From Candidatus Latescibacterota bacterium (GTDB lineage Bacteria; Latescibacterota; UBA2968; UBA8231), in NCBI GenBank assembly GCA_963422735.1, contig OY730476.1:1888001-1952000 (forward strand): 64,000 bases of DNA, in the 5' to 3' direction. The notes under the pieces are model-generated. The model saw only the letters and a program-made list of their open reading frames with translations, searched no databases and was not told the origin of the DNA. Below, one piece after another: positions 31,316 to 59,399 of the stretch (position 1 is the first letter of the stretch; every line of letters starts with the position of its first letter). The position numbers and the translations under genes were made by a program.

Positions 31316-31642
31316 CTAGTCGTAATAGCCGTATTCGCCCCGGGCTACGTATTCGTCCATCCGTTCTTGCGGCAAGGTCTCGACATCGTGGACGGGAAAC
31401 CCTTCCCCGGCGATTCGCTCAATATGGGGGCCGCGTCCGGCGCACTCGACCGGATACCCTCGCTCTTGCAGGACGCGAGCGAGCACGAGCGGGCGAATGG
31501 TGTGCGCCAAGCTGTACCCGTGAAAAAAGACGAGGATTTTCCGTTGGTCTCGCGCTAGCTGGTCCAGTTCCGTCCATCGACGGAGCCAACGATCCCAAAG
31601 CAGCAGGTGCTCAGAAAGTTTAGCTATAATAGAATGGAGCAT
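31316..31642 (-). pseudogene. Truncated N-terminal copy of the GT-B glycosyltransferase (cassette C)
   Basis: Near-identical to 46775-47112 (KILVFFHGYSLAHTIRPLVLA...); ends at EYGYYD*. Confidence 0.9.
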
Positions 31643-31658
31643 ATGCCCTCAATTTGAC

Positions 31659-32603
31659 CTACCGCGTCAGGGCGAATATGGGAATCGCTACTGGGTTGTC
31701 CCTAATGTGGACGATAATTTCACAATCGGTCTGGCCCGGTGGGAAGTCACTCTGGTTGCGTACTGCAACGACCAATCGCCGATCCGTCTCCCAGCGCCCA
31801 TCGAAAGCGAATGCGGGTGCTAAGCACTTCGATTGCACCCGGATCGGTGCCTGCGCCGCATCGGGTACAACGCGCACCGCGACCGTTTTCATTTGCCGTC
31901 GGTGAGGCTTGCCCATGCCAAAAGAAAGAGCGGACGGATCTACTTGGAACCGGTCTATAACCTTCCCTTCGACATGTACGATCTGTCGCAGTGTTTGGTC
32001 ATTCCCTACCAAATGGACTTCGACTAGGCCGTCTATGCGACTGCCCCAAGTCAACGCCTCATCTGTCCGAATCAACAACCCCGTACCCGCATCGGTAGGA
32101 TATGCCACGACGCCTTCACCCTGCACCGCAACCGAGTCGATCACGAGTGGCTGGTCGGCAATCTGAGCAAGCGATAGATGGCGCTCTAAAGGCAAGGTAG
32201 TGAAGTCTATTTCTCCTAAGTCTATTTCGGCGGGAAAGGGCGGCACGGCCTGTACTTGGAGATTCAGAGCCCACAGGGAATCCGCGCCGGCGATTTTGAC
32301 TGCGACTTGGCCCTTAAAGGAACCGGCGATATCCGCTGTATTTACATCGACCTTCAGATGATATCCTTCGCCGGCTTTCAGCACACCCTTGGGGAATTCG
32401 ACTCCGGTGCAGCCGCAGCCCGTCCGCACGTTTTCTATCTCGATATCAGTGGCGGGTTTGAACGCAATGGAGTGTGTGCTGTTTTGGCCGCTATACACCG
32501 AATCCAGTACCACCTCCGAGGGCAACTGAGCACCTATCGGGTAGGCGATCAACAAAAGCATGAGCAGGAACATAACCAACGCCTTTTGTTTCGGGTAAAG
32601 CAC
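31659..32603 (-). CDS. Secreted DUF1573-type Ig-like domain protein (cassette C)
   Basis: Signal peptide, IENVRTGCGCT motif, tandem beta-sandwich repeats (VDPSALSFG). Confidence 0.8.
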   Translation of the reverse strand: MLYPKQKALVMFLLMLLLIAYPIGAQLPSEVVLDSVYSGQNSTHSIAFKPATDIEIENVRTGCGCTGVEFPKGVLKAGEGYHLKVDVNTADIAGSFKGQVAVKIAGADSLWALNLQVQAVPPFPAEIDLGEIDFTTLPLERHLSLAQIADQPLVIDSVAVQGEGVVAYPTDAGTGLLIRTDEALTWGSRIDGLVEVHLVGNDQTLRQIVHVEGKVIDRFQVDPSALSFGMGKPHRRQMKTVAVRVVPDAAQAPIRVQSKCLAPAFAFDGRWETDRRLVVAVRNQSDFPPGQTDCEIIVHIRDNPVAIPIFALTR

Positions 32604-32608
32604 CTTTA

Positions 32609-34036
32609 CTAACCAACAATAGACGAGCGCAGCCAGACCCAGTACGCGGCCAGGTAGGTGAACACCGCAAAGAAGCCCAGCAAAACCAAATCGACGACAG
32701 CAGTGCTAGCTAACGCCGCTGCGGAGAGGTTTTCTGCAAACACCGGTATCTGCTCCAACTCTACCTTTTGCGTGGACAGTCCGTTCTCGACAAGCGGAAT
32801 ATGCAGACTACGCCCGTCCGCTCGGTCCATCGCCAAGAGCGTCTCCTCAAAACGTTGGGCATAACTCCTGACTTGATCGATGAAATGCCGATAGCGCGGT
32901 AGACCCGTACCCGCCATTGCCTCCATGGCGTATTGGTACGGCCCCATAGGAGAAAGCCGGACGATGTTCTGTGCTAAATTGACCTGTTGTATCCGTTGCC
33001 GCAGCAAGGCGTTTTCTATTTCTTGATGATGAGCACGCTCTGACCGCAATAGGCTTGAAAATTCTTTGAGAAATACGGGGTCGCGCAGATGACCTTTCGC
33101 CACCGCTTCCTTGCTTACTAATTCCGCGGCCTTTTGTCGAAGAGGACCGTATATGTTCACCTCCTGTATATCTTCATAGGATAGCTCGGCAATAGCCTTC
33201 CCCATCTGCGGCCACAGCAGGACCACGCTCACCCAGACGAAAAGCACCGTCGTCAGACTGCCCTGCCTACTCGAACTATGAGCCGATATCAGCAGCCCCA
33301 ACGCGGTACAGCCCGCCAGATAGACCACAGAGATCAAAACCATGATGGCGATACGCACCGCGTGAGCGACATTCAACGACAGGTCGGCGAGAACTAGGAC
33401 GATTAGCAGGTTCAGAGTGAGGCCGAGAAGTAGCACCCCGATCGAGACCATCATCGCGCCCCAGAACTTGCCCCACAGCAGCGTATGGCGCAGCAGGCTG
33501 TTGGCCATGACCAGCTTGAGGGTGCCGCTCTCCTTTTCGCCGACAATGGCGTCGTGGGTGAAAAGGAGGGCGGCCAAGCTCAGCAAGACGCCAACGATGA
33601 ATACCCAGTCAATGGTAATAAAGGTGGAGAGTAGCGGAACATCCTCTAACTCGTTAGGAAAAGATAGAATCCAAGGCCAGTAGAAACTGCAATCGAATCT
33701 AGCCCACATCCCGTGACGTCTCGCTACGGCATCTATGTTATCTGGTAGTTTATTGTCGGCGAAACCGGCGCAAAATGCCAATTCACTAGGTTGCTTATAG
33801 AGTAGCCCAAGGCCCTTGATTAGAAGCATCTGTAGGCTTGCCGCTCCATTAGTACGCAATGTTCGGTGTTGCTGGGTGACGTTTTCTATATAGGTATCTC
33901 GCTCTAGCTGATAAGTACTATGGACGAGGCCTAACGCGTTGAGCACCATCAAGCTAACGCACAATACCAGCGCCAGGCTGAACCGCAGGCTTTGGATATG
34001 CGCGACGAATTCCCGTTTGATAATAGTTATCAGCAT
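32609..34036 (-). CDS. ABC-2 type permease, subtype B (cassette C)
   Basis: IIKREF, AIVGEKESGTLKLVMAN..R..LLWGKF, ~6 TM segments with two large soluble loops. Confidence 0.88.
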   Translation of the reverse strand: MLITIIKREFVAHIQSLRFSLALVLCVSLMVLNALGLVHSTYQLERDTYIENVTQQHRTLRTNGAASLQMLLIKGLGLLYKQPSELAFCAGFADNKLPDNIDAVARRHGMWARFDCSFYWPWILSFPNELEDVPLLSTFITIDWVFIVGVLLSLAALLFTHDAIVGEKESGTLKLVMANSLLRHTLLWGKFWGAMMVSIGVLLLGLTLNLLIVLVLADLSLNVAHAVRIAIMVLISVVYLAGCTALGLLISAHSSSRQGSLTTVLFVWVSVVLLWPQMGKAIAELSYEDIQEVNIYGPLRQKAAELVSKEAVAKGHLRDPVFLKEFSSLLRSERAHHQEIENALLRQRIQQVNLAQNIVRLSPMGPYQYAMEAMAGTGLPRYRHFIDQVRSYAQRFEETLLAMDRADGRSLHIPLVENGLSTQKVELEQIPVFAENLSAAALASTAVVDLVLLGFFAVFTYLAAYWVWLRSSIVG

Positions 34037-34061
34037 GGTCTATTCCCCTCACCTGTTCTCC

Positions 34062-35585
34062 TCACCGAGTAACGTCATAGCGAGAAAAGAGCCCTATTAC
34101 GGCCAGCCATATTAGACCCGCATAGAGGAATAGAGGCAGGATGCTTGGCACAATTCTATCCAGCCGACGAGAAAGGGGTTCACGACGTTCCTCAAAGGCT
34201 GGCAGCGTGCGGGAGTCGAGGGTGCCTTTGTTATCCATAGCTTTGCCATCCTCGCCGATTATTTGCATCCCTTGTCCACTAAAAAAATCCTTGCTCCCGA
34301 ATGCGTCGTGTGCCCTTAGATACTCCAAGAGTTGCTTGCGGTACTGGCGAGCTTGATCGATGAAATCGTAAAAAACACCTGCATCCGTACCGGCCAAGCC
34401 GCCGGTAACCTCTAGATAGGCCCCTGCCGGCGTTATTCTTTGTAACTGCTCGTTTAAACGAATGAGCGACCGGGGTCGGTCTTCCCAAAGAGGGCCGCAG
34501 GCATTCCAAGCCTTTTGGGCATACTGAAGGCGTAAATTCTCCCCGGTTCTCAGAAGGCTTAGGAAGTTGGCTAGAGGAGCGTCCTCCTTAATCGGTCCGA
34601 TCGCAAAATGTGGGTTATTCCCAGGGCCCCCTGTCCCATACATATTACTGATCAAGTGTAGTGGGGGGTAGTCATCGCCCATCTCTGCCGTACGTACCAA
34701 TCCATCAACCCGTTGTTGGTATTCGCGCCACAACTCGTCTTGCACAGCCTCGGCTGTCTGGGCATCCGCCTGCCGATGGAATTGCTGATTGATGAAAAAA
34801 ATAATGCTGCTCGGCAGGACAATCACCAAAAAGGCCCAAGTGAATAGACCGTATATCAGGCTCGTCGAAGTGTTGTGTGTGTAGCACGAGATGGCCATGC
34901 CAATCAGGTAGAATATGGCTATGTAAAATAGGGATATCGCCCAAATCCCAATGAGACCCATCCAATCGTCCCCCGTAAGCCGGATGTGCTCGGAAGCGAG
35001 AAGAAAGATCGAGACACCGAGAAAACCCAAGAAGATCGGTATGTTGAGGAGTGTAATACCACTGAGGAACTTGCCCGTCGCGATCTGTACTCGGGACACA
35101 TTCATCGTCAACACCAGTGATAAGGTCCCTTTTTCTTTTTCGCCGGAGATAGATTCACACGCAAGGAGAACGGCTAGCAACGATAGAAAGACTTGGATGA
35201 CATGAACGACATCAAACGAACCTATTATGGCGAGTAAGGAATTGCCAGTAGTCGATAGGGTATGCTTGTCGGTAGCGTAGGGTATCTCATATATCCCAAT
35301 AGGGACTACGGAGCTCTTTTGCTCGGTGACGCCCCGGTCAAAGACTTCCAGCGGACTCGGAGTACGGACGACCTTGGTCCGCAATACGGCATATCCATCT
35401 ATTTTGCGAAATTCGTCGGCGATTTCTGCGACGATTCGATCTTTCTCTGCCCGTGCTTTTTCATGACTCGCTATTCGCAGCAGCCCGAGGACCCATATAA
35501 GCGACACTATAATCAGGGTACAGTAGATAAAGCGTCGGCTGATTAGCTGCTCTAGCAGTTCTTTCCTCCAGATGGCTTTTATCAT
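34062..35585 (-). CDS. ABC-2 type permease, subtype A (cassette C)
   Basis: IWRKEL, ESISGEKEKGTLSLVLT..SR..IATGKF, C-terminal FSRYDV. Confidence 0.88.
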   Translation of the reverse strand: MIKAIWRKELLEQLISRRFIYCTLIIVSLIWVLGLLRIASHEKARAEKDRIVAEIADEFRKIDGYAVLRTKVVRTPSPLEVFDRGVTEQKSSVVPIGIYEIPYATDKHTLSTTGNSLLAIIGSFDVVHVIQVFLSLLAVLLACESISGEKEKGTLSLVLTMNVSRVQIATGKFLSGITLLNIPIFLGFLGVSIFLLASEHIRLTGDDWMGLIGIWAISLFYIAIFYLIGMAISCYTHNTSTSLIYGLFTWAFLVIVLPSSIIFFINQQFHRQADAQTAEAVQDELWREYQQRVDGLVRTAEMGDDYPPLHLISNMYGTGGPGNNPHFAIGPIKEDAPLANFLSLLRTGENLRLQYAQKAWNACGPLWEDRPRSLIRLNEQLQRITPAGAYLEVTGGLAGTDAGVFYDFIDQARQYRKQLLEYLRAHDAFGSKDFFSGQGMQIIGEDGKAMDNKGTLDSRTLPAFEERREPLSRRLDRIVPSILPLFLYAGLIWLAVIGLFSRYDVTR

Positions 35586-35604
35586 GGTTCTATCTCAAAA
35601 CAAG

Positions 35605-35667: not shown

Positions 35668-35868
35668 CTACGGGCAAGAAATCGAGTAACCGCCTCCCTC
35701 TAGCGGCTTAAATATGCAATCACTGCCGTCGGGGCAATCATATTTGCAGAACTTATCCCCATTCGCCTTTATCACACAGCAGTCCTTGCCAGCCCAAGCT
35801 TGGACCGGCAAAAATTGCACGGCAAGACCAACGAGGCCGATGGCTATTTTCGATAATTCTCGCTTCAT
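35668..35868 (-). CDS. Small secreted 6-Cys peptide P-C (alternative GTG start at 35874)
   Basis: RBS GGGAGG; MKRELSKIAIGLVGLAVQFLPVQAWA|GKDCCVIKANGDKFCKYDCPDGSDCIFKPLEGGGYSISCP. Confidence 0.78.
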   Translation of the reverse strand: MKRELSKIAIGLVGLAVQFLPVQAWAGKDCCVIKANGDKFCKYDCPDGSDCIFKPLEGGGYSISCP

Positions 35869-35964
35869 CTTCACGATGTCCCTCCCTATCCTTAGAGTTT
35901 GGTTGGGTAAAAAACCATTCCTATCCAATATAGAAATGGGCTAATATAAATCTTCTCTTCTTTC

Positions 35965-36864
35965 TTAAAACTTATTAAATAAGTAGGATTCTGCTACGCT
36001 AGGGCTATAGAATACCTCTAGGTGGTGCCAGAGCTTCTTGTCTCGATCCCACATCAAACGAAAAAAAGACGGTGTGCGTCTTGTCGTCGTTGGGTCAAAC
36101 GCAGATTCGGACGGCTCTTCTACAATGAACATTATGTCCATACAGATGATCTTCTCTCCTGCTAGACGGGCGGGAAGTTGTTCTTTTAATTCCGTAGACA
36201 GAGAATACTTGATGAAGCCCGTAGGTAACATACCTCGGTCTTTTGCCAGACTGAAGAACGTTTGATCTCCTTTGTTTAGCTCAAATACCCTAAATTCGCT
36301 GTCGTGGAACGATACGTTTTCTATGAAGTACTCTTTGTTGAGAGAGAGAAGTATCGCTTTATGATCTGAACGAATTATGGATAGCGGGCTCTTTTCCATT
36401 AAAGCCGTCTCGACCTCCTCCCTAGTTCTTTCAACCATGTTCTCTATTTCCTCATCGTTTGAGCTTTGACTCCGGGCGTACTGTTGTTGGAATTCAGCCC
36501 AGTCTTCAGCCCATTCCATCTTTGTTCTCTTATATTTTTCCGCATCAAACCCCTCCCTCAGATAAAAGACTGCCGCCAAGCTATCATTGCCCGAATCGGA
36601 AAACGCAACTAGATACTGGCGCAACCAGTCTCTTAGACCCCGCTCTTGCTCCAAGTCTATAGCCGTTTCCAAGTTAATAGGTATAGCGTCGATTGCTTGG
36701 TCCAACTCCTCGCCTTCTTGAACCTTAATCATCTCTTGGCCGTTTATGTAGTTGTAAAACTCTTGGAAGTTTTCTCGGGTAAAGCCGCCATACCCCCCTT
36801 CTCGCGCTTGGCTAGGTGCTAATATAGCACTTATGCACGTAAGCGCACTCAACAGAATTTTCAT
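35965..36864 (-). CDS. Exported 'protein X' family member X-C (function unknown)
   Basis: Signal peptide (PSQA); shares YGGF, LRDWL..LVAFS..GNDSLAAVFYLR, VSF.DS.FRVF, FIVEEP and FFRLMWD..W.HLEV with three paralogs in the window. Confidence 0.82.
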   Translation of the reverse strand: MKILLSALTCISAILAPSQAREGGYGGFTRENFQEFYNYINGQEMIKVQEGEELDQAIDAIPINLETAIDLEQERGLRDWLRQYLVAFSDSGNDSLAAVFYLREGFDAEKYKRTKMEWAEDWAEFQQQYARSQSSNDEEIENMVERTREEVETALMEKSPLSIIRSDHKAILLSLNKEYFIENVSFHDSEFRVFELNKGDQTFFSLAKDRGMLPTGFIKYSLSTELKEQLPARLAGEKIICMDIMFIVEEPSESAFDPTTTRRTPSFFRLMWDRDKKLWHHLEVFYSPSVAESYLFNKF

Positions 36865-36935
36865 AGTAAACTCCACCTATTAAATAAAAGACAGATATTC
36901 TTTTGAGGCGGGGATCGAACCCCTCTACCTTAATA

Positions 36936-36962
36936 GACGGATGTAGGCAGCGAAAAGTTACA
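36936..36962 (-). promoter_or_regulatory. Candidate ECF sigma promoter upstream of X-C
   Basis: Minus strand TGTAAC-17 nt-CGTC (the AAC/CGT pattern of ECF promoters); conserved at 58542-58568. Confidence 0.65.
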
Positions 36963-37016
36963 GGGAGGGCAAAAAAGCTAAAAATGGGGTAGATTGCAGA
37001 GCACGAAAGAAATTGA

Positions 37017-37155
37017 GAAGCTGTCTAAAAACCCCCGTCGGGCCGCTTTGCGGGGCTATCGGTTTCCCGTCAAGAGTTTTTCGAGGGCGAGACGCCCTCG
37101 TTCCGAGGTTCTTTGACCCGTTTGAGGAACCGAACTTGGAATTTTCAACAGCGTC
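37017..37155. mobile_element. 139-bp MITE with a 3-bp TGA target-site duplication
   Basis: Absent from the paralogous site (~58620: AATTGAAGACATAG); flanked TGA...TGA; imperfect TIRs GAAGCTGTCTAAAAA / ATTTTCAACAGCGTC. Confidence 0.85.
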
Positions 37156-37172
37156 TGAAGACATAGATCGAT

Positions 37173-37640
37173 TTACTCCAAAAAGATGCGCAATTGCCTC
37201 CGTCCGCGGTGGAGATATACTTTGACCGTATTAAGGGGCATCATTAGCTCCCGACAGATATCCTTATAAGACAGCCCCCCAACGTCCCGCAGAAGGACAA
37301 GCGTTCGGTAGGGATCCTCCAACCGATTCAAGGCCGCTTTTAGGTACTGGGGCAAGTCTGTCTCGATAGCTTGGGCGTTCTGCCGGATCCGTTCGGAATC
37401 TTGAACACTGACTACCAAGCGATAGCTTTTCCGTCGGCGCAAGGCGTCCAAACAGGCATTGCGTGTCACCTGACGTATCCAAGCCTCCACATCTTTGAGG
37501 ACAATGGGGGAGCTATATTTCCACAGGCGGACCAGAACGTCTTGGACGACATCCTCGGTATCCTCGCGGTTGGCCATATATTCGTAGGCTAATGTGTAAA
37601 GGCTTCGTTGGTCTATTGGGCCGAGATGGGTGTTTTCCAT
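37173..37640 (-). CDS. ECF RNA polymerase sigma factor (cassette C)
   Basis: Region 2 DTEDVVQDVLVRLW..AWIRQVTRNACLD; region 4 LSYKDIC..LNTVKVYLHRGR. Confidence 0.92.
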   Translation of the reverse strand: MENTHLGPIDQRSLYTLAYEYMANREDTEDVVQDVLVRLWKYSSPIVLKDVEAWIRQVTRNACLDALRRRKSYRLVVSVQDSERIRQNAQAIETDLPQYLKAALNRLEDPYRTLVLLRDVGGLSYKDICRELMMPLNTVKVYLHRGRRQLRIFLE

Positions 37641-37755
37641 AGAGATACCCCTTTTCTTAGAAGTCACTGGGAGCACTCAGTAACGTAGCCGGCCAGTACA
37701 AGTTTTACCAAAAACCCTACAACGAAAGGCCGATAGAAGAATATGCCCAGCGGAC

Positions 37756-37784
37756 AGTATAGCCCCGACTTGACCTACATGCAA
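37756..37784 (-). promoter_or_regulatory. Candidate sigma-70 promoter of the ECF sigma gene
   Basis: TTGCAT-17 nt-TATACT; counterpart TTGTGT-17-TATACT at 59194-59222. Confidence 0.5.
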
Positions 37785-37904
37785 TGGCATCCGGGTGCTC
37801 CGAGTCGGCCGCCGGGTACTTGATGGCCGAGAGGCCGAGAGGTTGCCTTCGATGATTCGTACAAAGTGGAGGGGGCGTAGCTCAATCCACGCCCCCTCCT
37901 CCCC

Positions 37905-38627
37905 CTAGGCTGCTGGCAGGACGGGCCGTTCGACGTATTCGACGTAGAGTTGCTCCAAGTCGGCTTCTTGGAACTCGTCGCGGGTGAGCGTCTTGACCAG
38001 ATGGCCCTCGACCATGATGCCGAGCCGGTCGGCGATCACGCGTGCGCGGAACACGTCGTGGGTGGTCATCCAAATGGCCTTGCCTTCGTGGCGCAGCTCA
38101 TCCAACAGCTCCAAAAACTCGGCCCCAGACTTGGGATCGAGACCCGAGGTCGGCTCGTCGAGCAGCACGATGCGGGCGTCTTTGGCGATGGCAATGGCAA
38201 TGCCTAGCTTCTGGCGCATCCCCTTGGAAAACTCCTTGACCCGTCGGTCAAACGCCTCCTCTTGCAAGCCCACGCGTGCCATGATCGAGTCGTAGTGCGC
38301 GGCGTCTTGGGACGGCTGGCCGCTCAAGCGGGTGAAGAAATCCAAGTTCTGCCGGGCACTAAAGTTGCCGTAGAGCATGACGTTTTCCGAGACATAGGCC
38401 ACGTGCTTTTTGGCCTCTAAGGGCTGCTCGGTGATGTCGATGCCGCACAGCTTGACCGTGCCTTTTGTGGGTTCGGTAAAGCCCAACGCGACCATCAAGG
38501 TGGTGGTCTTGCCCGCGCCGTTGGCGCCGAGCATGGTGAAGACCTCGCCTTCGTGAATGGTCAGGTTGAGGTCGGTGACGGCTTTGACGTCCCCGTAGTG
38601 CTTGGAAAGTCCGATGATCTCCAACAT
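37905..38627 (-). CDS. ABC transporter ATP-binding protein
   Basis: Walker A GANGAGKTT, signature FSKGMRQ, Walker B IVLLDEP, H-loop TTHD. Confidence 0.96.
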   Translation of the reverse strand: MLEIIGLSKHYGDVKAVTDLNLTIHEGEVFTMLGANGAGKTTTLMVALGFTEPTKGTVKLCGIDITEQPLEAKKHVAYVSENVMLYGNFSARQNLDFFTRLSGQPSQDAAHYDSIMARVGLQEEAFDRRVKEFSKGMRQKLGIAIAIAKDARIVLLDEPTSGLDPKSGAEFLELLDELRHEGKAIWMTTHDVFRARVIADRLGIMVEGHLVKTLTRDEFQEADLEQLYVEYVERPVLPAA

Positions 38628-38651
38628 GAGGCGATCCTTTCGTGTGAGTGG

Positions 38652-41554: not shown

Positions 41555-41633
41555 GACGAACTCCTTTCTATACGATGCTGGCTCGCAGCCGCGACGGATA
41601 GGCCAGCGTAGAGTAAGCGTTCTACTATATTTT

Positions 41634-41649
41634 AGCAAGCATCGTGCCA
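41634..41649 (-). promoter_or_regulatory. Sigma-54 (-24/-12) promoter
   Basis: Minus strand TGGCACG-ATGC-TTGCT, an exact consensus match ~80 bp upstream of the 41554 start. Confidence 0.85.
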
Positions 41650-43396: not shown

Positions 43397-43525
43397 GTGT
43401 TTAAAATACTTTCTTTGTTTATTGCACCCGCCGAATGTACCCACAGATCAGGCTGTCGAGGTCGTGGATCAAGAACAGGTCAATGGAGTTGAAGCTCAAT
43501 CTCGGCAAGCTGTTTTCGTCAAGGC

Positions 43526-44566: not shown

Positions 44567-44579
44567 GGTATCACTCGGT

Positions 44580-47112: not shown

Positions 47113-47128
47113 ATGTCCTCAACTTGAC

Positions 47129-47356: not shown

Positions 47357-47389
47357 TTTCGTTACTTACGTATGCGTACTCCGGTGACT

Positions 47390-48358: not shown

Positions 48359-48412
48359 GGTTGCATTGTCCTTTCTCCAAGGGGTTGGGTAGAAATACAA
48401 ATCGAAAATCCC

Positions 48413-49852: not shown

Positions 49853-50057
49853 TTTATTGACCTTCACATAAGTAGATTTAGAGTTTTGATCTCAATCCCA
49901 ATACGGGAAAGTTGTAACCCAAGTTTGGTGTATTTCAATAGAACTCCGTCCACGAAAGAACGCGACACAAATGAACTGTGACAAATCCCGCCCGACTGCA
50001 TCGTAGCGTTTGAATGGTCATGTATGCCGGTTCTAATAGTTCCAGTAAGTCATTGTA

Positions 50058-50876: not shown

Positions 50877-50933
50877 GTTTCCTTTCTCCTTCTTTAGAGA
50901 GGTACTACCTCAATTGTGGCACAATACTTTCTA

Positions 50934-52466: not shown

Positions 52467-52550
52467 GGTCCGCTCGTTCAGAAATTACTGAGGCGGTATT
52501 AACTGAAGTCTCGAGAACATCAACAGTGGCTCGTGCAACAAAATAAGGAG

Positions 52551-52588
52551 ACAGTTTGGGAGTGTACCGAAATCCACTCCCAAACTGT
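52551..52588 (-). terminator. 14-bp stem-loop after peptide gene P-B
   Basis: ACAGTTTGGGAGTG-10 nt-CACTCCCAAACTGT, perfect inverted repeat. Confidence 0.7.
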
Positions 52589-52609
52589 ACACCTAACTAG
52601 ACAAGCAGC

Positions 52610-52897
52610 CTAAGCTACCATGCATTTCGCCTCTAACTCATCACAGATGCAAGAAGGCGTTTCCCCTGGGTAAAGGACAGTGTCTCCAGATAGGGTGCAT
52701 TTATTTGTTACCATCACCGAAATACCGAGCAGCTTCTTCCAGCCGACCGCGGCGTCGTAGGTAAACGAGCAATCGCACCCGCCGTGGCCGTGAGTGTCCT
52801 CGATCGTATGTGCTCCTGCCAGCATTGGAAGAATGTTGAGTACTAGGGCGGTTAGGGAAATGCCTACTTTCATAAGGCGTTTCACAAGAAGATTCAT
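52610..52897 (-). CDS. Small secreted 6-Cys peptide P-B
   Basis: RBS AAGGAG; MNLLVKRLMKVGISLTALVLNILPMLAGA|HTIEDTHGHGGCDC...NKC...PSCICDELEAKCMVA. Confidence 0.8.
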   Translation of the reverse strand: MNLLVKRLMKVGISLTALVLNILPMLAGAHTIEDTHGHGGCDCSFTYDAAVGWKKLLGISVMVTNKCTLSGDTVLYPGETPSCICDELEAKCMVA

Positions 52898-52979
52898 GAG
52901 GTTTCACTCCTTATAAGAAAGGGTAACTAAGCTACGAAAAGAAAGAGATACAACTACTTCGCCGCAGAGCGGAGGCTGA

Positions 52980-53156
52980 TTATCGAGAACTACATAGTTC
53001 CTCCTTTCTAATGGTGTGCTCCAAGCTGTACCCGTGAAAAAAGACGAGGATTTTCCGTTGGTCTCGCGCTAGCTGGTTCAGTTCCGTCCAGCGATGGAGC
53101 CAACGATCCCAAAATAGCAATCGCTCAGAAAATTTAGCTAGGATAGAATGGAGCAT
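52980..53156 (-). pseudogene. Short N-terminal fragment of the GT-B glycosyltransferase (cassette A)
   Basis: MLHSILAKFSERLLFWDRWLHRWTELNQLARDQRKILVFFHGYSLEHTIR, then homology ends (~53010). Confidence 0.85.
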
Positions 53157-53172
53157 AGACCCTCAACTTGAC

Positions 53173-54104
53173 CTACCGCGTCAGGGCAAATACGGGAATC
53201 GCTACCGGATTATCCCCAATATGGACGATAATTTCGCAATTGGTTTGGCCCGGTGGGAAGTCACTCTGGTTGCGTACCGCAACGACCAATCGCCGATCCG
53301 TCTCCCAGAGCCAATCGAAAGCGAATGTGGGTGCTGGGCACTTCGATTGCACCCGGATCGGAGCCTGCGCTGCCTCGGGTACAACGCGCACCGCGACCGT
53401 TTTCATTTGCCGCCGGTGAGGCTTGCCCATGCCAAAAGAAAGAGCGGACGGATCTACTTGGAACCGGTCTATAACCTTCCCTTCGACATGCACGGTTTGT
53501 CGCAGTGTTTGGTCATTCCCTACCAAATGGACTTCGACTAGGCCGTCTATACCACGGCCCCAAGTCAACGCCTCATCTGTCCGAATTAATAACCCCGTAC
53601 CCGCATCGGTAGGATATGCCACGACGCCTTCACCGAGTCGATAGCAAGCGGCTGGTCAGCAATCTGGGCAAGCGATAGGTGGCGCTCTAAGGGCAAGGTA
53701 ATGAGGTCTATTTCTCCCAAGTCTATTTCGGCGGGAAAGGGCGGCACGGCCTGTACTTGGAGATTCAGAGCCCACAGGGAATCCGCGCCGGCGATTTTGA
53801 CTGCGACTTGGCTCTTAAAGGAACCGGCGATATCCGCTGTATTTACATCGACCTTCAAATGATATTCTTCGCCGGCTTTCAGCACACCTTTGGGGAACTC
53901 GACTCCGGTGCAGCCGCAGCCCGTCCGCACGTTTACTATCTCGATATCGGTGGTGGGTTTGAACGCAATGAAGTGTGTGCTGTTTTGGCCGCTATACACC
54001 GAATCCAGTACCACCTCTGAGGGCAACTGAGCACCTATCGGGTAGGCGATCAACAAAAGCATGATCAGGAACATAACCAACGCCTTTTGTTTCGGATAAA
54101 GCAC
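53173..54104 (-). pseudogene. DUF1573-type protein (cassette A) with a 13-bp deletion frameshift
   Basis: Near-identical to 31659-32603; CTGCACCGCAACC is missing at ~53634 between ACC microhomologies. Confidence 0.88.
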
Positions 54105-54125
54105 CTTTAAGACGCACGACAAGTC

Positions 54126-55592
54126 CTAATCGGCAATAGACGAGCGCAGCCAGACCCAGTACGCGGCCAGATAGGTGAACACCGCAAAGAAGCCCAGCAA
54201 AACCAAATCGACGACGGCCGAGCTAGCTAACGCCGCTGCGGAGAGGTTTTCTGCAAACACCGGCATCTCCTCCAGTTCTACCTTCTGCGTGGACAGCCCA
54301 TTCTTTACAAGCGGAACATGCAGACTGCGCGAGTCTGCCCTATCTATGGCGAGGAGAGCTCCTTCGAAATGCTGTGCATAACTTCGGGCTTGATCGATGA
54401 AATGACGATACCGCGGTAGGCCAGTACCCGCCATTGCCTCCATCGCGTATTGGTAGGCTCCCATGGGAGAGACCCGGACAATGTTCTGGGCTAAATTGAC
54501 CTGTTGTACCCGACGCCGCAGCAGGACATCTGCTAATTCTTGATGGTGAACACGTTCTGACCGCAATGCGCTCGAAAATTTTTTGACAAACGTAGGATCG
54601 AGCCGATTGCCCTCCATTGCCAAGCCGAAAGCACGCCCCCGAATGGGATGCCAAGTGAACGTACCGTCGCCGTGCTCGTACACGTACTTGGTATGTTCTA
54701 ATTCATGTACCTCTTCATGGAATAGCTCGGCTAGGGTCTTCCCCATCTGTGGCCACAGCAAAACCATACCCACCCAGACGAAGAGCACGGTCGTCAGACT
54801 GACCCGCCGACTGGAACTATGCGCCGATATGAGCAGCCCCAGCGAGGTACAGCCCGCCAGATAGACCATAGAGATCAAAACCATAGCGGCGATGCGCACC
54901 GCGTGGGAGAAATCCAGCGATAGCTCGGCGAGCATCAAGACGATCAACAGATTGAGGGTAACGCAGAGGAGCAGTACCCCGCTCAAGACCATCATCGCAC
55001 CCCAGAATTTGCCCCACAGTAGCGTATGGCGTGGCAGGCTGTTGGCCATGACTAGCTTGAGGACGCCGCTCTCCCTTTCGCCGACAATGGCGTCGTGTGT
55101 AAACAGGAAGGCGGCCAAGCTCAGCAAGACGCCGATGATGAATACCCAGTCAATGGTGATAAAAGTGGAGAGTAGGGGAGCATCCTTTAGTTCGGTAGGA
55201 AAAGATAGAATCCACGGCCAATAAAAACCTTTATCAATGGGTTTACCCCCGCTATATGCCATTATATAGATCCCGTCCGTTACAGCATCTACTTTGTCTG
55301 GTAATTTATTGTCGGCGAAACCGGCACAAAACGCTAATTCACTAGGTTTCTTATAAAGTACCCCAGGACCTTCGAGCAGTAGCTGTCGCAGGCCTGCGAC
55401 ACCATTATCGCGCAGCCTTTGGTGTTGCTGCGAGATGTTTTCTCTATATACATCTCGCTCGAATTGATAGGTACTATGGACGAGGACGAGCGCATTGAGC
55501 ACCATCAAGCCAACGCACAGCATCAGCACCAGGCTGAACCGCAGGCTTTGGATATGCGAGATGAATTCCCGTTTGACAATAGTCGTCAGCAT
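54126..55592 (-). CDS. ABC-2 type permease, subtype B (cassette A)
   Basis: Close paralog of 32609-34036 (AIVGERESGVLKLVMAN). Confidence 0.88.
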   Translation of the reverse strand: MLTTIVKREFISHIQSLRFSLVLMLCVGLMVLNALVLVHSTYQFERDVYRENISQQHQRLRDNGVAGLRQLLLEGPGVLYKKPSELAFCAGFADNKLPDKVDAVTDGIYIMAYSGGKPIDKGFYWPWILSFPTELKDAPLLSTFITIDWVFIIGVLLSLAAFLFTHDAIVGERESGVLKLVMANSLPRHTLLWGKFWGAMMVLSGVLLLCVTLNLLIVLMLAELSLDFSHAVRIAAMVLISMVYLAGCTSLGLLISAHSSSRRVSLTTVLFVWVGMVLLWPQMGKTLAELFHEEVHELEHTKYVYEHGDGTFTWHPIRGRAFGLAMEGNRLDPTFVKKFSSALRSERVHHQELADVLLRRRVQQVNLAQNIVRVSPMGAYQYAMEAMAGTGLPRYRHFIDQARSYAQHFEGALLAIDRADSRSLHVPLVKNGLSTQKVELEEMPVFAENLSAAALASSAVVDLVLLGFFAVFTYLAAYWVWLRSSIAD

Positions 55593-55599
55593 GGTCCGT

Positions 55600-57108
55600 T
55601 CATCGCATAAGATCGTAGCGAGAAAAAAGCCTTATTACGGCAAGCCAACTTAGGCCCGCATAGATAAACAGAGACAGGAGGCCCGGCGCAATTCTACTTA
55701 GCCGTTCGGAAAGGGGCTCACGGTGCTCTGCAAAGACAGGAAGATCGCTGAGGTCGAGTGCCGATCTCTTAGCTGCTCTTTCCTCGGATGACATACCTGG
55801 TTTACCTATAAATTCCATGCTCCCGAACGCGTCGTGCGCCCTTAAATAGTCCAACAGTTGATCTCGGTACTGACGAGCCTGATTGATAAAATCGTAAAAA
55901 CCCCCCGCATCCGTACCGGCCAAGCCCCCGGTAACCTCTAGATAGGCCCCTGCCGGCGTAATCCTCTGCAACTGGGTGTTTAGGCGGATGAGCGACCGGG
56001 GCCGGCCTTCCCAAAGAGGACTGCAAGCATTCCAAACTTTTTGGGCATACTGGAGGCGTAGATTCTCCCCGGCCCTCAGAATGTTTAAGAAGTCGGCTAT
56101 GCGGGCATCCCTCCGAATCGATCCGATATTGAAACCCGGCGTACTCCCACCGTCATACCCAAACGCCCTAGCGACCAAGTATATCGGGGGGTAGGTACGG
56201 TCTATCCCCGCCGTACGCACCAAGTCGTTCGCCTGTCTTTCGTGCTCGCTCCACAGTTCGTCTTCCAGAGCCTTGGCTTTTTGGGCATCCGCTTGCCGAT
56301 GGAATTGCTGATTGACGAAAAATGTAATGCTGATCGGCAGGACAATCACCAAGAAGGTCCAGATGAATAGGCTGTATATCAGGCTCGTCGAAGTGTTGTG
56401 TGTGTAGCACGAAATGGCCATGCCAATCAGGTAAAATATGGCTATGTAAAATAGGGAAGCCATCCAAGTTCCGATGAGGCCTACCCAGTCGGCCTCTGTA
56501 AGCCGGACATGCTCAGAAGCAATGAAAAAAATTGCCAGACCGAGAAAGCCTAGGAAGATAGGTATATTGAGGAGCGTAATACCGCCCAAGAATTTGCCTA
56601 TCACGACCTGCATTCGGAAGACGTTCGTCGTCAGCATCAGTGCTAGGGTGCCGTCTTCTTTTTCTCCTGAAATAGACTCGCAGGCGAAGAGAATGGCCAA
56701 CAACGCTAAAAAGATTTGGATGACATGAACGACATCCAATGAACCTATTATGGAGAGTAAAGGATTGCCAGTGGTCGCTAGGGTATGCTTATCGGCAAGG
56801 TAGGGTATCTGGTATATCTCAATGGGCACTACGGAACTCTTTTGCTCGGTAACGCCTCGGTCAGTGACTTCCAGCGGGCTCGGTGTGCGGACGACCTTGG
56901 TCCGCAATTTGTGGTAACTATCTATCTTGCGGAGTTCGTCGGCCGTTTCTGCGACTATGCGATCCTTCTCGGCCTGTGCTCTTTCGTAACTTGCTATTCG
57001 CAGCAGTCCGATGACCCATATAAGCGATACTGTAATCAGGATACAGTAGATAAAGCGCCGGCTGGCTAGCTGCTCTAGCAACTCTTTTTTCCAGATGATT
57101 TTTATCAT
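55600..57108 (-). CDS. ABC-2 type permease, subtype A (cassette A)
   Basis: Close paralog of 34062-35585 (ESISGEKEDGTLALMLT). Confidence 0.88.
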   Translation of the reverse strand: MIKIIWKKELLEQLASRRFIYCILITVSLIWVIGLLRIASYERAQAEKDRIVAETADELRKIDSYHKLRTKVVRTPSPLEVTDRGVTEQKSSVVPIEIYQIPYLADKHTLATTGNPLLSIIGSLDVVHVIQIFLALLAILFACESISGEKEDGTLALMLTTNVFRMQVVIGKFLGGITLLNIPIFLGFLGLAIFFIASEHVRLTEADWVGLIGTWMASLFYIAIFYLIGMAISCYTHNTSTSLIYSLFIWTFLVIVLPISITFFVNQQFHRQADAQKAKALEDELWSEHERQANDLVRTAGIDRTYPPIYLVARAFGYDGGSTPGFNIGSIRRDARIADFLNILRAGENLRLQYAQKVWNACSPLWEGRPRSLIRLNTQLQRITPAGAYLEVTGGLAGTDAGGFYDFINQARQYRDQLLDYLRAHDAFGSMEFIGKPGMSSEERAAKRSALDLSDLPVFAEHREPLSERLSRIAPGLLSLFIYAGLSWLAVIRLFSRYDLMR

Positions 57109-57261
57109 TTGCTGGGGCGAAAAAGGGGGGCTTTGGGCGGAAAGACCAAACGCGGCTTCACCGCGCCTTTAGGTACAACCAAGGTGATCGAAAACTACGG
57201 CGTTACAAGATCGAGTTGTTGGTTGGCTTAGTGAATAGGTGAATATAATTACATGCGTTAT

Positions 57262-57310
57262 AAGACAGAAAGCAGGTAAGCTCAATACTCGCTTACCTGC
57301 TTTCTGTCTT
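57262..57310 (-). terminator. 20-bp stem-loop after peptide gene P-A
   Basis: AAGACAGAAAGCAGGTAAGC-9 nt-GCTTACCTGCTTTCTGTCTT, perfect inverted repeat. Confidence 0.75.
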
Positions 57311-57332
57311 TGCTAGATGGATGTGCTATCTG

Positions 57333-57536
57333 CTATGCACAGTAAAGCGAAATTTCGATGCTAGTTTTGGTTATAGAAACATCCATTCGGCAATCATTCT
57401 GAGAAGCGCATGACCACTTGTATTCTCTACCATCCACCTCTCCGTGGCAGTTGTGCCAGCCGTCGGTCCTTACTTGATTCGGTAAGAGCCAAGCTGCCAT
57501 GCCAATGAAGGTGATACCCAATCGTGCGAATACCAC
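57333..57536 (-). CDS. Small secreted 4-Cys peptide P-A
   Basis: GTG 2 nt after the X-A stop; VFARLGITFIGMAAWLLPNQVRT|DGWHNCHGEVDGREYKWSCASQNDCRMDVSITKTSIEISLYCA; same position as P-C in its cassette. Confidence 0.7.
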   Translation of the reverse strand: MVFARLGITFIGMAAWLLPNQVRTDGWHNCHGEVDGREYKWSCASQNDCRMDVSITKTSIEISLYCA

Positions 57537-57538
57537 CT

Positions 57539-58480
57539 CTACAGTAAGTTAAAGAAGTAAGTATCTCTTACCCCAGCTCCAGAACTATAGAATACTTCCA
57601 AATGACGCCATAGCTCCTTGTCTCGATCCCACATCAAACGAAAAAATGATGATGTGCGTCTTGGGACTGGATCAGGTACAAATTCTGGTGGCTCCTCTAC
57701 AATGAATAATATATCCGCACAGATGATCTTCTCTCCAGCCTCTAGAAGTGCTGGAAGTTTATCACTTAGTCCTGTCTCCTGATGACTATATCCCCTAGGT
57801 AACATTCCTTGGTCAGATGCTAGGCGTAAAAACGTCGGAGTCTCTTGCCCTAACTCAAACACCCTAAAGCCACTGTCTTGGAACGATACACTTTCTATAA
57901 AATACTCCTTGTTGTGATTTCTTAGCGCATCTTTATGCTTTGAACGAAACAGAGGTAGTGCCCCTTCCTTCAAAGCGGTCTCAGCACTCACTCTGACACT
58001 ATCAACCATTTCTTGAACAGCTTTCTCTATTTCTTCTTTATCGGTTAGTATGGTACCGTCTGCACTTTTAATATTGATGCTTGGGTTTTGGGCATTTTCC
58101 CGGACGAAATCAGCCCATGCCAGACTTTGAGCTATATATCTTTCCTTGTTAAATCCTGCCCTCAGATAGAAAACCGCCGCCAAGCTATCATTGCCCGACT
58201 CGGAAAACGCAATGAGATACTGGCGCAACCAGTCTCTCAAGCCGCGCTCTTGCTCCAAGTCTATCGCCGTTTCCAAGTTAATGGGTATCGCGTCAATCGC
58301 TTGGTCCAACTTCTCGCCCGCTTGTACCTTAATCATCTCAAGGCCGTTTATGTAGTCGTTAAACTCCTGCATGTTTTCTTGAGTAAAGCCGCCATACCCC
58401 CCTTCTCGCGCTTGACTCGGCGAGGATATCGAACTTAGGCCGATAATAAGCACACTACAAAATAGTATTAACGTTTTCAT
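57539..58480 (-). CDS. Protein X family member X-A
   Basis: Signal peptide (PSQA); N-terminal ~90 aa nearly identical to X-C, middle divergent. Confidence 0.82.
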   Translation of the reverse strand: MKTLILFCSVLIIGLSSISSPSQAREGGYGGFTQENMQEFNDYINGLEMIKVQAGEKLDQAIDAIPINLETAIDLEQERGLRDWLRQYLIAFSESGNDSLAAVFYLRAGFNKERYIAQSLAWADFVRENAQNPSINIKSADGTILTDKEEIEKAVQEMVDSVRVSAETALKEGALPLFRSKHKDALRNHNKEYFIESVSFQDSGFRVFELGQETPTFLRLASDQGMLPRGYSHQETGLSDKLPALLEAGEKIICADILFIVEEPPEFVPDPVPRRTSSFFRLMWDRDKELWRHLEVFYSSGAGVRDTYFFNLL

Positions 58481-58541
58481 AGAAAGTTTCTCTGCATGTT
58501 TCGTTCTTCGCAACGTTATAAAAGTGCTTCTACAATATAAA

Positions 58542-58568
58542 GACGTATGTCGGCAGCGAAAAGTTACA
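58542..58568 (-). promoter_or_regulatory. Candidate ECF sigma promoter upstream of X-A
   Basis: TGTAAC-17 nt-CGTC, as at 36936-36962. Confidence 0.65.
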
Positions 58569-58636
58569 GGGAGGGCAAAAAAATTAAAAATGGGGTAGAT
58601 TGCAGAGCACGAAAGAAATTGAAGACATAGATCGAT

Positions 58637-59104
58637 TTACTCCAAAAAGATGCGCAATTGCCTCCGTCCGCGGTGGAGATATACTTTGACCGTATTAAGG
58701 GGCATCATTAGCTCCCGACAGATATCCTTATAAGACAGCCCCCCAACGTCCCGCAGAAGGACAAGAGTTCGGTAGGGATCCTCCAACCGATTCAAGGCCG
58801 CTTTTAGGTACTGGGGCAAGTCTGTCTCGATAGCTTGGGCGTTCTGCCGGATCCGTTCGGAATCTTGAACACTGACTACCAAGCGATAGCTTTTCCGTCG
58901 GCGCAAGGCGTCCAAACAGGCATTGCGTGTCACCTGACGTATCCAAGCCTCCACATCTTTGAGGACAATGGAGGAGCTATATTTCCACAGGCGGACCAGA
59001 ACGTCTTGGACGACATCCTCGGTATCCTCGCGGTTGGCCATATATTCGTAGGCTAATGTGTAAAGGCTTCGTTGGTCTATTGGGCCGAGATGGGTGTTTT
59101 CCAT
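58637..59104 (-). CDS. ECF RNA polymerase sigma factor (cassette A)
   Basis: 155 aa; differs from 37173-37640 at one residue (SSIV vs SPIV). Confidence 0.92.
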   Translation of the reverse strand: MENTHLGPIDQRSLYTLAYEYMANREDTEDVVQDVLVRLWKYSSSIVLKDVEAWIRQVTRNACLDALRRRKSYRLVVSVQDSERIRQNAQAIETDLPQYLKAALNRLEDPYRTLVLLRDVGGLSYKDICRELMMPLNTVKVYLHRGRRQLRIFLE

Positions 59105-59193
59105 AGAGATACCCCTTTTCTTAAAAGTCGCTGGGAATGCCCAATAACGTAGCCAGAGAAACCTCGATAGAGCCACGAGTATGCCCGGTGAAC

Positions 59194-59222
59194 AGTATAG
59201 CCCTGATTTGACCTACACACAA
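59194..59222 (-). promoter_or_regulatory. Candidate sigma-70 promoter of the ECF sigma gene
   Basis: TTGTGT-17 nt-TATACT, paralogous to 37756-37784. Confidence 0.45.
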
Positions 59223-59399
59223 TCGCATTCGGGCGACCGCGTCGGGTGCCGGGTACTTGCTGGTATGCCTGCCCTCGATGAGTCGTAGCCCTTTATGGCC
59301 CAAGACTTTGAACCACATCACCCCCAAGGTGAAGACCGTCCCGGTCATGGCCCGTCCGTCGGGCACCCGACTTGTTATGGGGGCCTCTAGGAGCCATTA

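Follow-up and report, generated by a model that had tools for sequence, protein, structure and literature searches.

Cysteine-rich peptide genes, an unnamed protein family and paired ABC-2 permeases in three cassettes beside a single ATPase in a Latescibacterota genome

In energy-coupling factor (ECF)-type vitamin importers and sugar ATP-binding cassette (ABC) importers, several specificity subunits are served by one shared energising module, and polymorphic toxin and bacteriocin loci carry cognate as well as orphan immunity genes. Among systems that handle small peptides, lantibiotic producers possess a binding protein, LanI, together with the ABC transporter LanFEG, as described in excerpts of PMC4828448 and bioRxiv 10.1101/2025.10.09.681468. 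Escherichia coli STII is exported by Sec with the involvement of DsbA and subsequently by MacAB-TolC, according to an excerpt of PMC5985334. Here we describe a locus (positions 31316-59288) in a 64-kb stretch of the genome of Candidatus Latescibacterota bacterium (contig OY730476.1, positions 1,888,001 to 1,952,000); this whole stretch is referred to as the window. The locus comprises three cassettes (A to C), each with a gene for a small cysteine-rich peptide (P), one or two genes for a protein termed X and a pair of ABC-2 permeases (A and B), and a single 'engine' of an ABC ATPase, a TolC-family protein and a NEW3-domain protein. The interpretation that we favour, if tentatively and with somewhat less than even confidence, is a genus-specific modular peptide system, in which P would be exported by Sec, captured by a cognate X and expelled via cognate permease pairs acting on the shared ATPase/NEW3/TolC engine, for secretion, self-protection or both. 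The two-step route of STII and the combination of LanI with LanFEG provide its precedent.

Gene order, peptides, protein X and permeases

Every gene of the locus lies on the minus strand according to open reading frame (ORF) calls (Table 1). Along the coding strand, cassette C is followed by cassette B with glycosyltransferase (GT) and TPR genes, then by the engine and finally by cassette A. Cassettes A and C are arranged as sigma, X, P, permease A, permease B and DUF1573; cassette B, which is without a sigma gene, reads P, permease A, X, permease B, X. Pfam and NCBIfam identified two extracytoplasmic function (ECF) sigma factors, six ABC-2 permeases of ∼500 amino acids (aa), one each of ABC ATPase, TolC-family protein and 531-aa NEW3 protein, as well as DUF1573 proteins, a GT1 (MGT/EryCIII-like) part, a transglutaminase-like part, a GT2 and a TPR protein. 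The four X proteins (272-336 aa) and the three small P ORFs had no family match. Gene content and order are as described in a first-pass annotation made from the sequence alone, and its count of six permeases to one ATPase was borne out by Pfam and by tblastn with this ATPase as query (E≤1e-5), which revealed a single ABC ATPase in the window. It had also reported no radical SAM or propeller gene, and a Pfam scan of 30 ORFs of the window found neither, nor any LanB/C/M-type lanthipeptide enzyme, C39 peptidase or RRE family. For comparison, 55 related loci were fetched, with titles naming Latescibacterota/Latescibacteria in 52 cases and Gemmatimonadota/-etes in 3; they are cited below by number (L014 and so on).

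P leaders have a basic start, a hydrophobic run of ∼15 residues and an end of the form Pro-x-x-small-x-small, a shape that points to a Sec/signal-peptidase-I type signal. The cores (29-66 aa) contain 4-8 cysteines and form at least three classes. Class 2, to which P-A belongs, has the pattern CC...C..C...C...C, and class 3, that of P-C, has 4-6 cysteines; both recur in other species beside the same kind of X, class 3 being shared with peptides of L033 and L035. For nine peptides, Pfam at E≤1 gave only two sub-threshold rows at chance level, and NCBIfam was of no help with either X or P. A crude screen for sequences of 35-140 aa with a hydrophobic N-terminus and 4 or more Cys recovered all three window peptides with one false match in 28.5 kb, and in the related loci it picked up small same-strand genes adjoining X or permeases. 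A hidden Markov model (HMM) of the leader was run against 96,353 six-frame segments of the own genome and yielded nine matches at E≤5e-8, all inside X/permease loci, the next match having E 0.16. In 984 kb of related loci there were 42 matches (4 of them the same place seen twice in overlapping loci), all on the strand of X and each at most 800 nucleotides (nt) from a gene of the set; 33 have at least 4 Cys and nine are truncated or frameshifted. The HMM was trained on most of its matches, and the independent information is the absence of matches anywhere else. Judged by these searches, the P family is specific to X/permease loci. Its leader is conserved and its core diversifying: among 17 class-1 peptides, chosen by their cysteine spacing, dN was 0.115 and dN/dS 0.31 in the leader against 0.50 and 0.74 in the core, in which six cysteines are fixed.

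None of the 272 clusters of X at 90% identity carries a Pfam domain. The AlphaFold2 model of X-B1 aligns over residues 71-268 to NTF2-like domains (Z 5.0-6.6 over 104-134 residues, rmsd 3.6-4.7); 34 chains reached Z≥5, the top rows almost all NTF2-like, and none reached Z≥8. With Foldseek, no match to the X model was found at E≤0.001, and in the ESM Atlas none reached 0.9, the best (0.89) lying among hypothetical Bacteroidota clusters. The model is suggestive of an NTF2-like fold. When X-A (residues 25-303) and P-A (residues 29-68) were modelled as a complex, three runs scored 0.72, 0.26 and 0.69 (median 0.69), compared to 0.00 for the best of three controls. Of 157 solved complexes, 116 attain the mark used for this score, as do 2 of 215 mismatched pairs; these counts hold only roughly, own alignments having been used. 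The runs agreed in at least 44% of contacts with a partner pLDDT of at least 71, and placed the contacts at X-A residues 117-129, 171-179 and 218-225. Of the 26 interface residues, X-A and X-C have just 4 in common, while 177 of the remaining 253 mature residues are the same in both (Fisher p 7e-8). The surface predicted to contact P is the part of X that differs between the paralogues.

A quick rather than careful tree search of 118 X proteins (ORFs shorter than 230 aa and exact duplicates dropped) produced clades that follow gene position: X directly after class-1 P (13 rows, support 100), second X (15 rows), X before class-2 or class-3 P (7 rows, support 100) and solitary X (30 rows, support 100). 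Within the 'before P' clade, X-A groups with class-2 partners and X-C with class-3 partners, and X-C is 82% and 74% identical to X proteins adjoining class-3 peptides in two other genomes. The idea that each peptide has a cognate X is favoured by the complex prediction, the hypervariable interface and the match between clade and class. The congruence that was expected with it is seen in the X clades. Identity matrices of X and permease B also agree with peptide class; in permease A the agreement is less clear, and class is followed only loosely.

Other arrangements of X were observed. The build of X-B2, a 4-Cys segment joined to an X domain, occurs in one other cluster (P0368) and as a decayed copy in L017; this single lineage gives a weak hint of a P-like segment acting in cis with X. 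Secreted redoxins of TlpA/AhpC-like type are neighbours of solitary X genes in L036 (9968-14312), L041 (6119-12404) and L050 (6755-10717), with an ECF sigma gene also adjacent in L036; in L051 (7924-10777) the solitary X lies behind an operon of GntR, ABC ATPase and small ABC-2 permease. Short matches to the X profile are found 16 and 15 times in P0405 (2010 aa) and P0408 (1066 aa), with E 1e-11 and 8e-9; these may be repeat proteins or a low-complexity artefact.

Cassettes A and C, which lie ∼21.5 kb apart, are direct repeats of each other, and the identity between them varies in a mosaic fashion. Nucleotide identity is 96-100% in sigma, 93% in a 90-nt part of the sigma-X spacer, 88% in the 5' part of X and 61-73% in its middle, 51-56% in P (effectively unrelated), 65-90% in the permeases and 91-97% in DUF1573, and homology stops inside a truncated GT1 5' fragment. 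Synonymous divergence is lowest in sigma (dS 0.017), followed by DUF1573 (0.14), and is higher in permease B (0.55), permease A (0.58) and X (0.83). X and both permeases are under purifying selection overall (dN/dS 0.26-0.33), with a non-synonymous hot spot at residues 107-165 of X. Based on the dS contrast and these ratios, the cassette interiors are old and under selection, and the flanks were homogenised or recombined recently. The mosaic profile agrees with the earlier description of near-identical sigma and DUF1573 copies around divergent peptides, X middles and permease loops, except that the DUF1573 copy of cassette C is broken. Cassette genes had also been described as richer in A+T than the flanks, which holds: GC content is 45-49% in X genes, 48-51% in P genes and 49-53% in permeases, against 59.5% in the genome and 60-66% in the engine.

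All six permeases match PF12679 (77.6-97.6 bits, cut-off 27.2), and four of six pass the cut-off of 25 for PF12040 (DUF3526), permease A of cassettes A and C scoring 22.5 and 21 bits. Permeases A and B are 23-27% identical and always paired. Permease A of cassette B is 37-39% identical to the copies of cassettes A and C, and 48-50% to those of a second locus in this genome (see below). Hydropathy gives six hydrophobic segments, which place both large loops outside the cytoplasm, and the divergence of permease loops noted earlier falls there: the non-synonymous hot spots (residues 286-330 and 422-460 of permease A, 91-120 and 271-320 of permease B) lie in periplasmic loops.

The shared engine and the distribution of the cassettes

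The NEW3 protein is 71-87% identical across 12 species. Its model has an N-terminal helix, an alpha-hairpin (residues 24-62 and 68-103, 2 x 38 residues), three beta-sandwich domains and a C-terminal transmembrane (TM) helix, and a search of the ESM Atlas gave NEW3-domain clusters only. We infer from position and shape that it is the adaptor to TolC. In the related loci, permeases lie beside X in 30 of 55 cases, and NEW3-TolC occurs in 12 of 55, always behind at least one permease pair. Many permease pairs on one engine are thus the rule in these loci, and the sharing of one ATPase/TolC/NEW3 module by several pairs, first noticed in the window, is a conserved layout.

X has a narrow distribution. 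At E≤0.001 its profile matched 60 clusters among 1.84 billion representative proteins, about eleven of them full length, and among species genomes of the phylum it was found in 24 of 30 other genomes of the genus of the window and in 0 of 137 genomes of other genera. Close homologues of permease A (at least 39% identity) occur in 18 genomes of the same genus, all 18 with X, and the best outside the genus is 34% identical; more distant DUF3526 permeases are present in 77 of 168 phylum genomes. The expected co-occurrence therefore holds for X and permease A and is incomplete for the peptide, many cassettes being without P. Of 45 distinct full-length permease A genes in the related loci, 22 have an intact P in their cassette, 3 a decayed P and 15 none, and 5 are at a locus edge, so the notion of one peptide per permease pair is not general; a recognisable P is missing from about a third to nearly half of the permease pairs elsewhere.

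These counts bear on a reading of the system as protection only, in which X and the permease pair would capture and expel cysteine-rich peptides of other cells (relatives or a host) and the own P would be secondary. The constant part consists of X and the two permeases, A and B; the 15 permease A genes without recognisable P and the 3 cassettes with intact X and permeases beside a decayed P are as expected on this reading, as are the excess of X over P in this genome (11 full-length X, 8 intact P) and the solitary X after the GntR-ATPase-ABC-2 permease operon of L051. It is opposed by the presence of P genes with conserved leaders only in these loci, in 22 of 45 cassettes, and by the prediction that X-A binds the neighbouring P via its variable surface. 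We consider protection alone unlikely; it overlaps the modular peptide system proposed above and differs from it mainly in emphasis.

Accessory genes, gene decay and genomic surroundings

The ECF sigma factors match PF04542 and PF08281, and TIGR02937 with 75.4 bits (cut-off 42.9). Cassettes A and C both begin with such a gene, and L016, L031 and L035 contain further ones; class-1 cassettes are without sigma. An ECF-promoter-like motif, GTAAC-N16-CGTC, is found on the minus strand at 36936-36961 and 58542-58567, inside the conserved 90-nt spacer upstream of X-A and X-C. With 3 matches in the window where 1.29 are expected, the motif shows no enrichment and is a lead only; a sigma-70 promoter scan gave 9 sites with 14.4 expected, and Rfam at gathering score gave no match in 30000-60500. 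Neither an anti-sigma factor nor a membrane-spanning transducer was recognised beside sigma among the ORFs or by Pfam, and a 68-aa ORF (36958-37164) was rejected as anti-sigma factor, since cassette C has no counterpart.

The sigma genes raise the question of a signalling role, in which the ECF sigma factor would be informed of cell density or kin identity by P-X complexes, with the pump controlling how much of the signal is present in the periplasm. The position of sigma at the head of cassettes A and C and in three other loci, the spacer with its motif before X-A and X-C, the solitary X beside an ECF sigma gene in L036 and one NTF2 match, the sensor domain of anti-sigma factor RsgI9 (Z 5.8), are consistent with it. 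The missing anti-sigma factor or transducer, the class-1 cassettes without sigma and the unenriched motif make it very improbable.

The DUF1573 proteins match PF07610 with 43-45 bits (cut-off 26.1), and their G-C-G-C (C-x-C) motif is kept in 12 of 12 distinct homologues of related loci. A DUF1573 selenoprotein with U-G-C at the C-x-C motif, U first, is tabulated in a selenoproteome review (PMC13188914). Together, the conserved motif and this selenoprotein suggest redox chemistry at a redox-active site.

In relatives and at two other places in this genome, GT1 and the transglutaminase-like domain form one protein of 832-840 aa, GT1::TG. The first-pass annotation had listed them as GT/transglutaminase; what is present in the window is a broken form of the fused gene, with its N-terminus out of frame, a frame change near 45930 (where related contigs have an extra G) and 2 TAG codons on reading through. 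Its two 'GT start' pieces are truncated copies of GT1, and both of these 5' pieces mark duplication junctions. GT1 resembles the natural-product glycosyltransferases CalG2, OleD and GtfB; GT2 matched 28 solved chains of generic GT-A type, none named peptide S-glycosyltransferase. GT1::TG occurs in 21 of 30 genomes of the genus, and also in 11 genomes of 8 other genera in which X was not found. Glycosylation or cross-linking of the peptides, which had been suggested earlier, is doubtful given GT1::TG in genera where X was not found, the stand-alone copy at 350 kb of this genome and the broken window copy. The glycosyltransferase genes probably represent an older neighbour of the cassettes, not a tailoring set dedicated to them. 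As a separate observation, a clade of GT1::TG paralogues (∼47-50% identical to the query), absent from this genome, has a single in-frame TGA in 12 matches from 9 genomes (for example G144:C1:6246475-6248901 and G139:C1:5524147-5526576), which could be a selenocysteine codon or a shared lesion.

Two further readings give these enzymes a central part. In the first, the ABC-2/NEW3/TolC apparatus would export a glycoconjugate made by GT1::TG, GT2 and TPR, with X and P as accessory or regulatory proteins. Glycans and lipids are common substrates of ABC-2 exporters; in NCBIfam the ATPase came closest to DrrA, NodI and GldA types, each time below the cut-off, and L014, L017 and L018 have a same-strand string of GT1::TG, GT2, permease A, P, X, X, permease B, DUF1573, TPR, NEW3, TolC and ATPase. 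This is nevertheless improbable: GT1::TG is found in 11 genomes of 8 genera in which X was not found, and alone at 350 kb, its copies in the window and at 410 kb are broken while the cassettes are intact, and a single glycan product leaves the diversification of X and permease loops in each cassette unexplained. In the second, P would be glycocin-like, with a leader read in the cytoplasm by GT/TPR and removed by the transglutaminase-like (papain-fold) domain, and with a one-step ABC-2/NEW3/TolC exit as in microcin type I secretion. The leader is unusually conserved for a plain signal peptide, GT1 is akin to the three natural-product enzymes named above, and GT genes are linked to cassettes in many loci. 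We regard this reading as quite improbable, because the leader shows n-, h- and c-regions and a small-x-small cleavage motif, as Sec signals do; X has its own signal peptide, and its predicted binding of P speaks for a periplasmic location of the peptide; Pfam detected no C39 peptidase, RRE or radical SAM family; and GT1::TG is not confined to genomes with X.

The DUF1573 gene of cassette C is likewise split, its two ORFs matching residues 1-158 and 162-314 of the intact copy in cassette A, and a related contig has 13 additional bases at 53630. The idea that cassettes A and C are strain variants wrongly joined in assembly was rejected, since the genome is one closed 4.95-Mb contig, the junctions lie within truncated GT1 copies, and an independent sequencing run contains a 6102-nt contig that spans 47097-52996 with 55 differences. 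A joint from 52996 to 59004 was too weak to use, one of its sides being 27 letters long, and the thin cover of parts of the stretch in some runs carries no weight here.

The same genome holds a second, larger paralogous locus at ∼383-419 kb (L065, L066), all on the minus strand, with four permease pairs, seven X genes (one split), four P genes and two GT1::TG/GT2 sets, of which the one at 410 kb is broken. The engines are nearly the same, positions 37776-41606 of the window being 99.8% identical over 3831 nt to 383447-387277 of the genome. A stand-alone TPR-GT1::TG-GT2 set lies at 350-355 kb, away from any cassette; in front of it are genes for a peptidase A24-like membrane protein and a small secreted redoxin of AhpC/TSA type (347970-350227; L064:4970-7227), and behind it one for a DUF4159 protein. 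Cassette remnants exist at 38.7 kb and 947 kb. The former (38744-39949) is chimeric, with a P-type leader joined to an N-terminal segment of X and then C-terminal permease fragments, and looks like a product of deletions within an old cassette.

The locus is flanked by ordinary metabolic genes, the downstream neighbour being convergent and ending at 31079. HpcH/HpaI aldolase genes (25004-26158 and 59400-60230) and PhyH dioxygenase genes (22572-23501 and 60300-61758) occur on both flanks, so that the low-GC cassette region looks inserted into, or expanded within, a metabolic neighbourhood.

Table 1. Features of the locus in coding-strand order (window positions).
Feature	Position	Strand	Remarks
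ECF sigma, cassette C	58637-59176	-	Sigma70_r2 + r4_2; 97% aa identity to cassette A copy
Sigma-to-X spacer, cassette C	58514-58636	-	GTAAC-N16-CGTC at 58542-58567; ∼90 nt in common with cassette A
X-C	57539-58513	-	Secreted X-family protein, predicted NTF2-like fold; no Pfam/NCBIfam family
P-C	57333-57536	-	Class-3 peptide; signal-peptide-like leader, 4-Cys core; leader HMM E 4.9e-8
Permease A, cassette C	55600-57108	-	PF12679, PF12040; 6 TM; 73% identical to cassette A copy
Permease B, cassette C	54126-55592	-	PF12679, PF12040; 76% identical to cassette A copy
DUF1573 gene, cassette C, split in two frames	53173-54122 (ORFs 53586-54122, 53173-53622)	-	Probable pseudogene
GT1 5' fragment, junction of cassettes C and B	52980-53156	-	58-aa ORF matching GT1 N-terminus; repeat family D1
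P-B	52610-52897	-	Leader + 66-aa 6-Cys core; leader HMM E 2.1e-8
Permease A, cassette B	50934-52466	-	PF12679, PF12698, PF12040
X-B1	50058-50876	-	AlphaFold2 pLDDT 86.6, pTM 0.84
Permease B, cassette B	48413-49867	-	PF12679, PF12040
X-B2	47390-48400	-	X domain; 4-Cys N-terminal extension behind signal peptide
DUF1573 3' fragment, cassette B	47129-47356	-	75-aa ORF; 82% identical to residues 239-314 of cassette A copy
GT1 + transglutaminase-like parts, broken fused gene	44580-47060	-	PF06722, PF00201, PF01841
GT2 glycosyltransferase	43526-44566	-	PF00535
TPR protein	42191-43444	-	TPR families; 80% identical to copy at 350 kb of genome
NEW3-domain bitopic protein, candidate periplasmic adaptor	40043-41638	-	PF10633
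TolC-family outer-membrane factor	38652-40184	-	PF02321, 122.5 bits over two stretches
ABC ATPase	37905-38627	-	PF00005
ECF sigma, cassette A	37173-37676	-	Pfam
X-A	35965-36876	-	Predicted P-A binder; interface residues hypervariable
P-A	35668-35874	-	Class-2 peptide; leader + 40-aa 6-Cys core; leader HMM E 9e-12
Permease A, cassette A	34062-35585	-	Pfam
Permease B, cassette A	32609-34036	-	Pfam
DUF1573 protein, cassette A, intact	31659-32603	-	PF07610; signal peptide, GCGC motif
GT1 5' fragment, locus end	31316-31642	-	108-aa ORF; 94% nt identity to 46775-47074

Proposed working and comparison with described systems

In the modular peptide system that we propose, P would reach the periplasm behind its Sec/signal-peptidase-I type leader, and its 4-8 cysteines would be oxidised there, possibly aided by the secreted C-x-C protein DUF1573. 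A cognate, NTF2-like X is predicted to bind P via a hypervariable helical insert and a strand edge. The permease A/B heterodimer would then recognise P or the X-P complex through the variable parts of its two periplasmic domains, and the shared ATPase would drive expulsion from the envelope, NEW3 providing the coupling to TolC, as gene linkage and analogy suggest. We infer the Sec routing, the disulfide formation, the coupling to the pump and any biological activity that P may have. The outcome would be a diversifying peptide arsenal that is secreted, self-protection, or both, and cassettes that keep X and permeases without P would serve as orphan protection modules. The mosaic divergence shows exchange or conversion of cassettes by recombination at the conserved flanks (sigma, DUF1573 and the GT1 5' end), and the ECF sigma of class-2 and class-3 cassettes probably drives transcription of X, P and the permeases. 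The most far-reaching version, one engine with interchangeable ABC-2 pairs, each matched to an NTF2-like receptor and a fast-diversifying disulfide-rich peptide, and thus a conotoxin-like arsenal with plug-in secretion and immunity that is restricted to one Latescibacterota genus and subject to flank recombination, is possible and for the present doubtful.

A number of points weigh against the proposed system. Fifteen of 45 permease A cassettes have no recognisable P and five more are at locus edges, and L027, L043 and L063 contain minimal operons of X, permease A, permease B, NEW3, TolC and ATPase that are complete except for P; it follows that P is neither the only substrate nor an obligatory part, and it has no known activity. 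The NTF2-like call rests on Z 5-6.6, which is below the level that excludes chance arrangements, and the score of the X-A/P-A complex is a model confidence that covers a single cognate pair. The permease identity matrix tracks peptide class only loosely: although its peptide is of class 2, L025 has a permease A that shares 78-80% identity with class-3 copies and 78% with that of cassette A. The NEW3 model is mediocre (pLDDT 72.4, pTM 0.41), and Foldseek returned integrin-leg and Ig-like strings only, with no membrane-fusion or adaptor family and no HlyD match in Pfam. Finally, several genes of the window are broken.

If the proposal is true, an ABC exporter would be modular in the way that some importers are, and one outer-membrane conduit would offer a new way to secrete or resist many peptides. 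It would also add a new family of small disulfide-rich bacterial peptides and a Pfam-less family of binders, and would provide concrete cognate pairs for work on specificity in an uncultured lineage of almost unknown biology. X and P are two unnamed protein families. Consistent with the first-pass annotation, which did not recognise the combination as a described system, no matching system was found in the literature. Main texts gave no report of one motor shared by several exporter specificity modules linked to secreted peptides. No work on DUF3526, or on Latescibacteria together with cysteine-rich molecules and sponges, was found, and literature hits for DUF1573 with ABC transporter and peptide were only unrelated ones; bacteriocin, TolC and ABC-2 are not mentioned in the accessible part of a Latescibacterota genome paper (PMC12993501).

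Several described families share single features with the locus. The plug-in principle is that of ECF-type and sugar importers; those import small nutrients, whereas here exporter-type ABC-2 pairs are linked to TolC and secreted peptides. As in polymorphic toxin loci, there are conserved flanks, a hypervariable payload and partner, mosaic recombination, partners without payload and decaying copies, but no toxin domain or known killing activity is present and the partner is a binder with a dedicated transporter pair. The peptides resemble conotoxins and mussel CRP-I in their conserved signal region, hypervariable mature part and fixed cysteines, as far as these are described in excerpts of PMC4558851, PMC7900195 and PMC11860864, although those genes are eukaryotic; publications found on such conserved-signal, hypervariable cysteine peptide families, seen in part, concerned animals or plants or were reviews, and no bacterial family was found in them. 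Compared to glycocins (SunA/SunS), there is no Peptidase_C39, and the leader is shaped like a signal peptide rather than a double-glycine leader.

The closest likenesses are to the two peptide systems introduced at the outset. LanFEG/LanI (e.g. NisFEG/NisI) has one ATPase, two ABC-2-type subunits and an extracytoplasmic binder beside the peptide gene, and its transporter expels the producer's own peptide, according to the excerpts of the sources cited. Here, in contrast, the permeases are twice as long, with two periplasmic domains (DUF3526), and there are several pairs per ATPase in a Gram-negative-type host with TolC and NEW3. TIGR03733 (MutG/LanG) gave 17.5 bits against 117.2, only permease A of cassette B matching, and TIGR03740 gave 151.3 against 309.75. 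The peptides look like unmodified Sec substrates, with no lanthipeptide enzymes among the 30 ORFs, and X has a different, NTF2-like predicted fold. MacAB-TolC with STII shares a Sec-exported small peptide, periplasmic disulfides, and an ABC transporter with adaptor and TolC, in the part of PMC5985334 referred to above. MacB, however, is an FtsX-type protein with 4 TM segments fused to the ATPase, whereas the permeases here are separate ABC-2 heterodimers with 6 TM segments; no HlyD/MacA adaptor was detected in this locus, and X, the multiplicity of cassettes and the hypervariability of the peptides have no counterpart in MacAB. By analogy, the locus would work like LanI/LanFEG self-immunity and like Sec-Dsb-MacAB-TolC secretion of STII, yet its transporter subunits fall outside the families that define either system.

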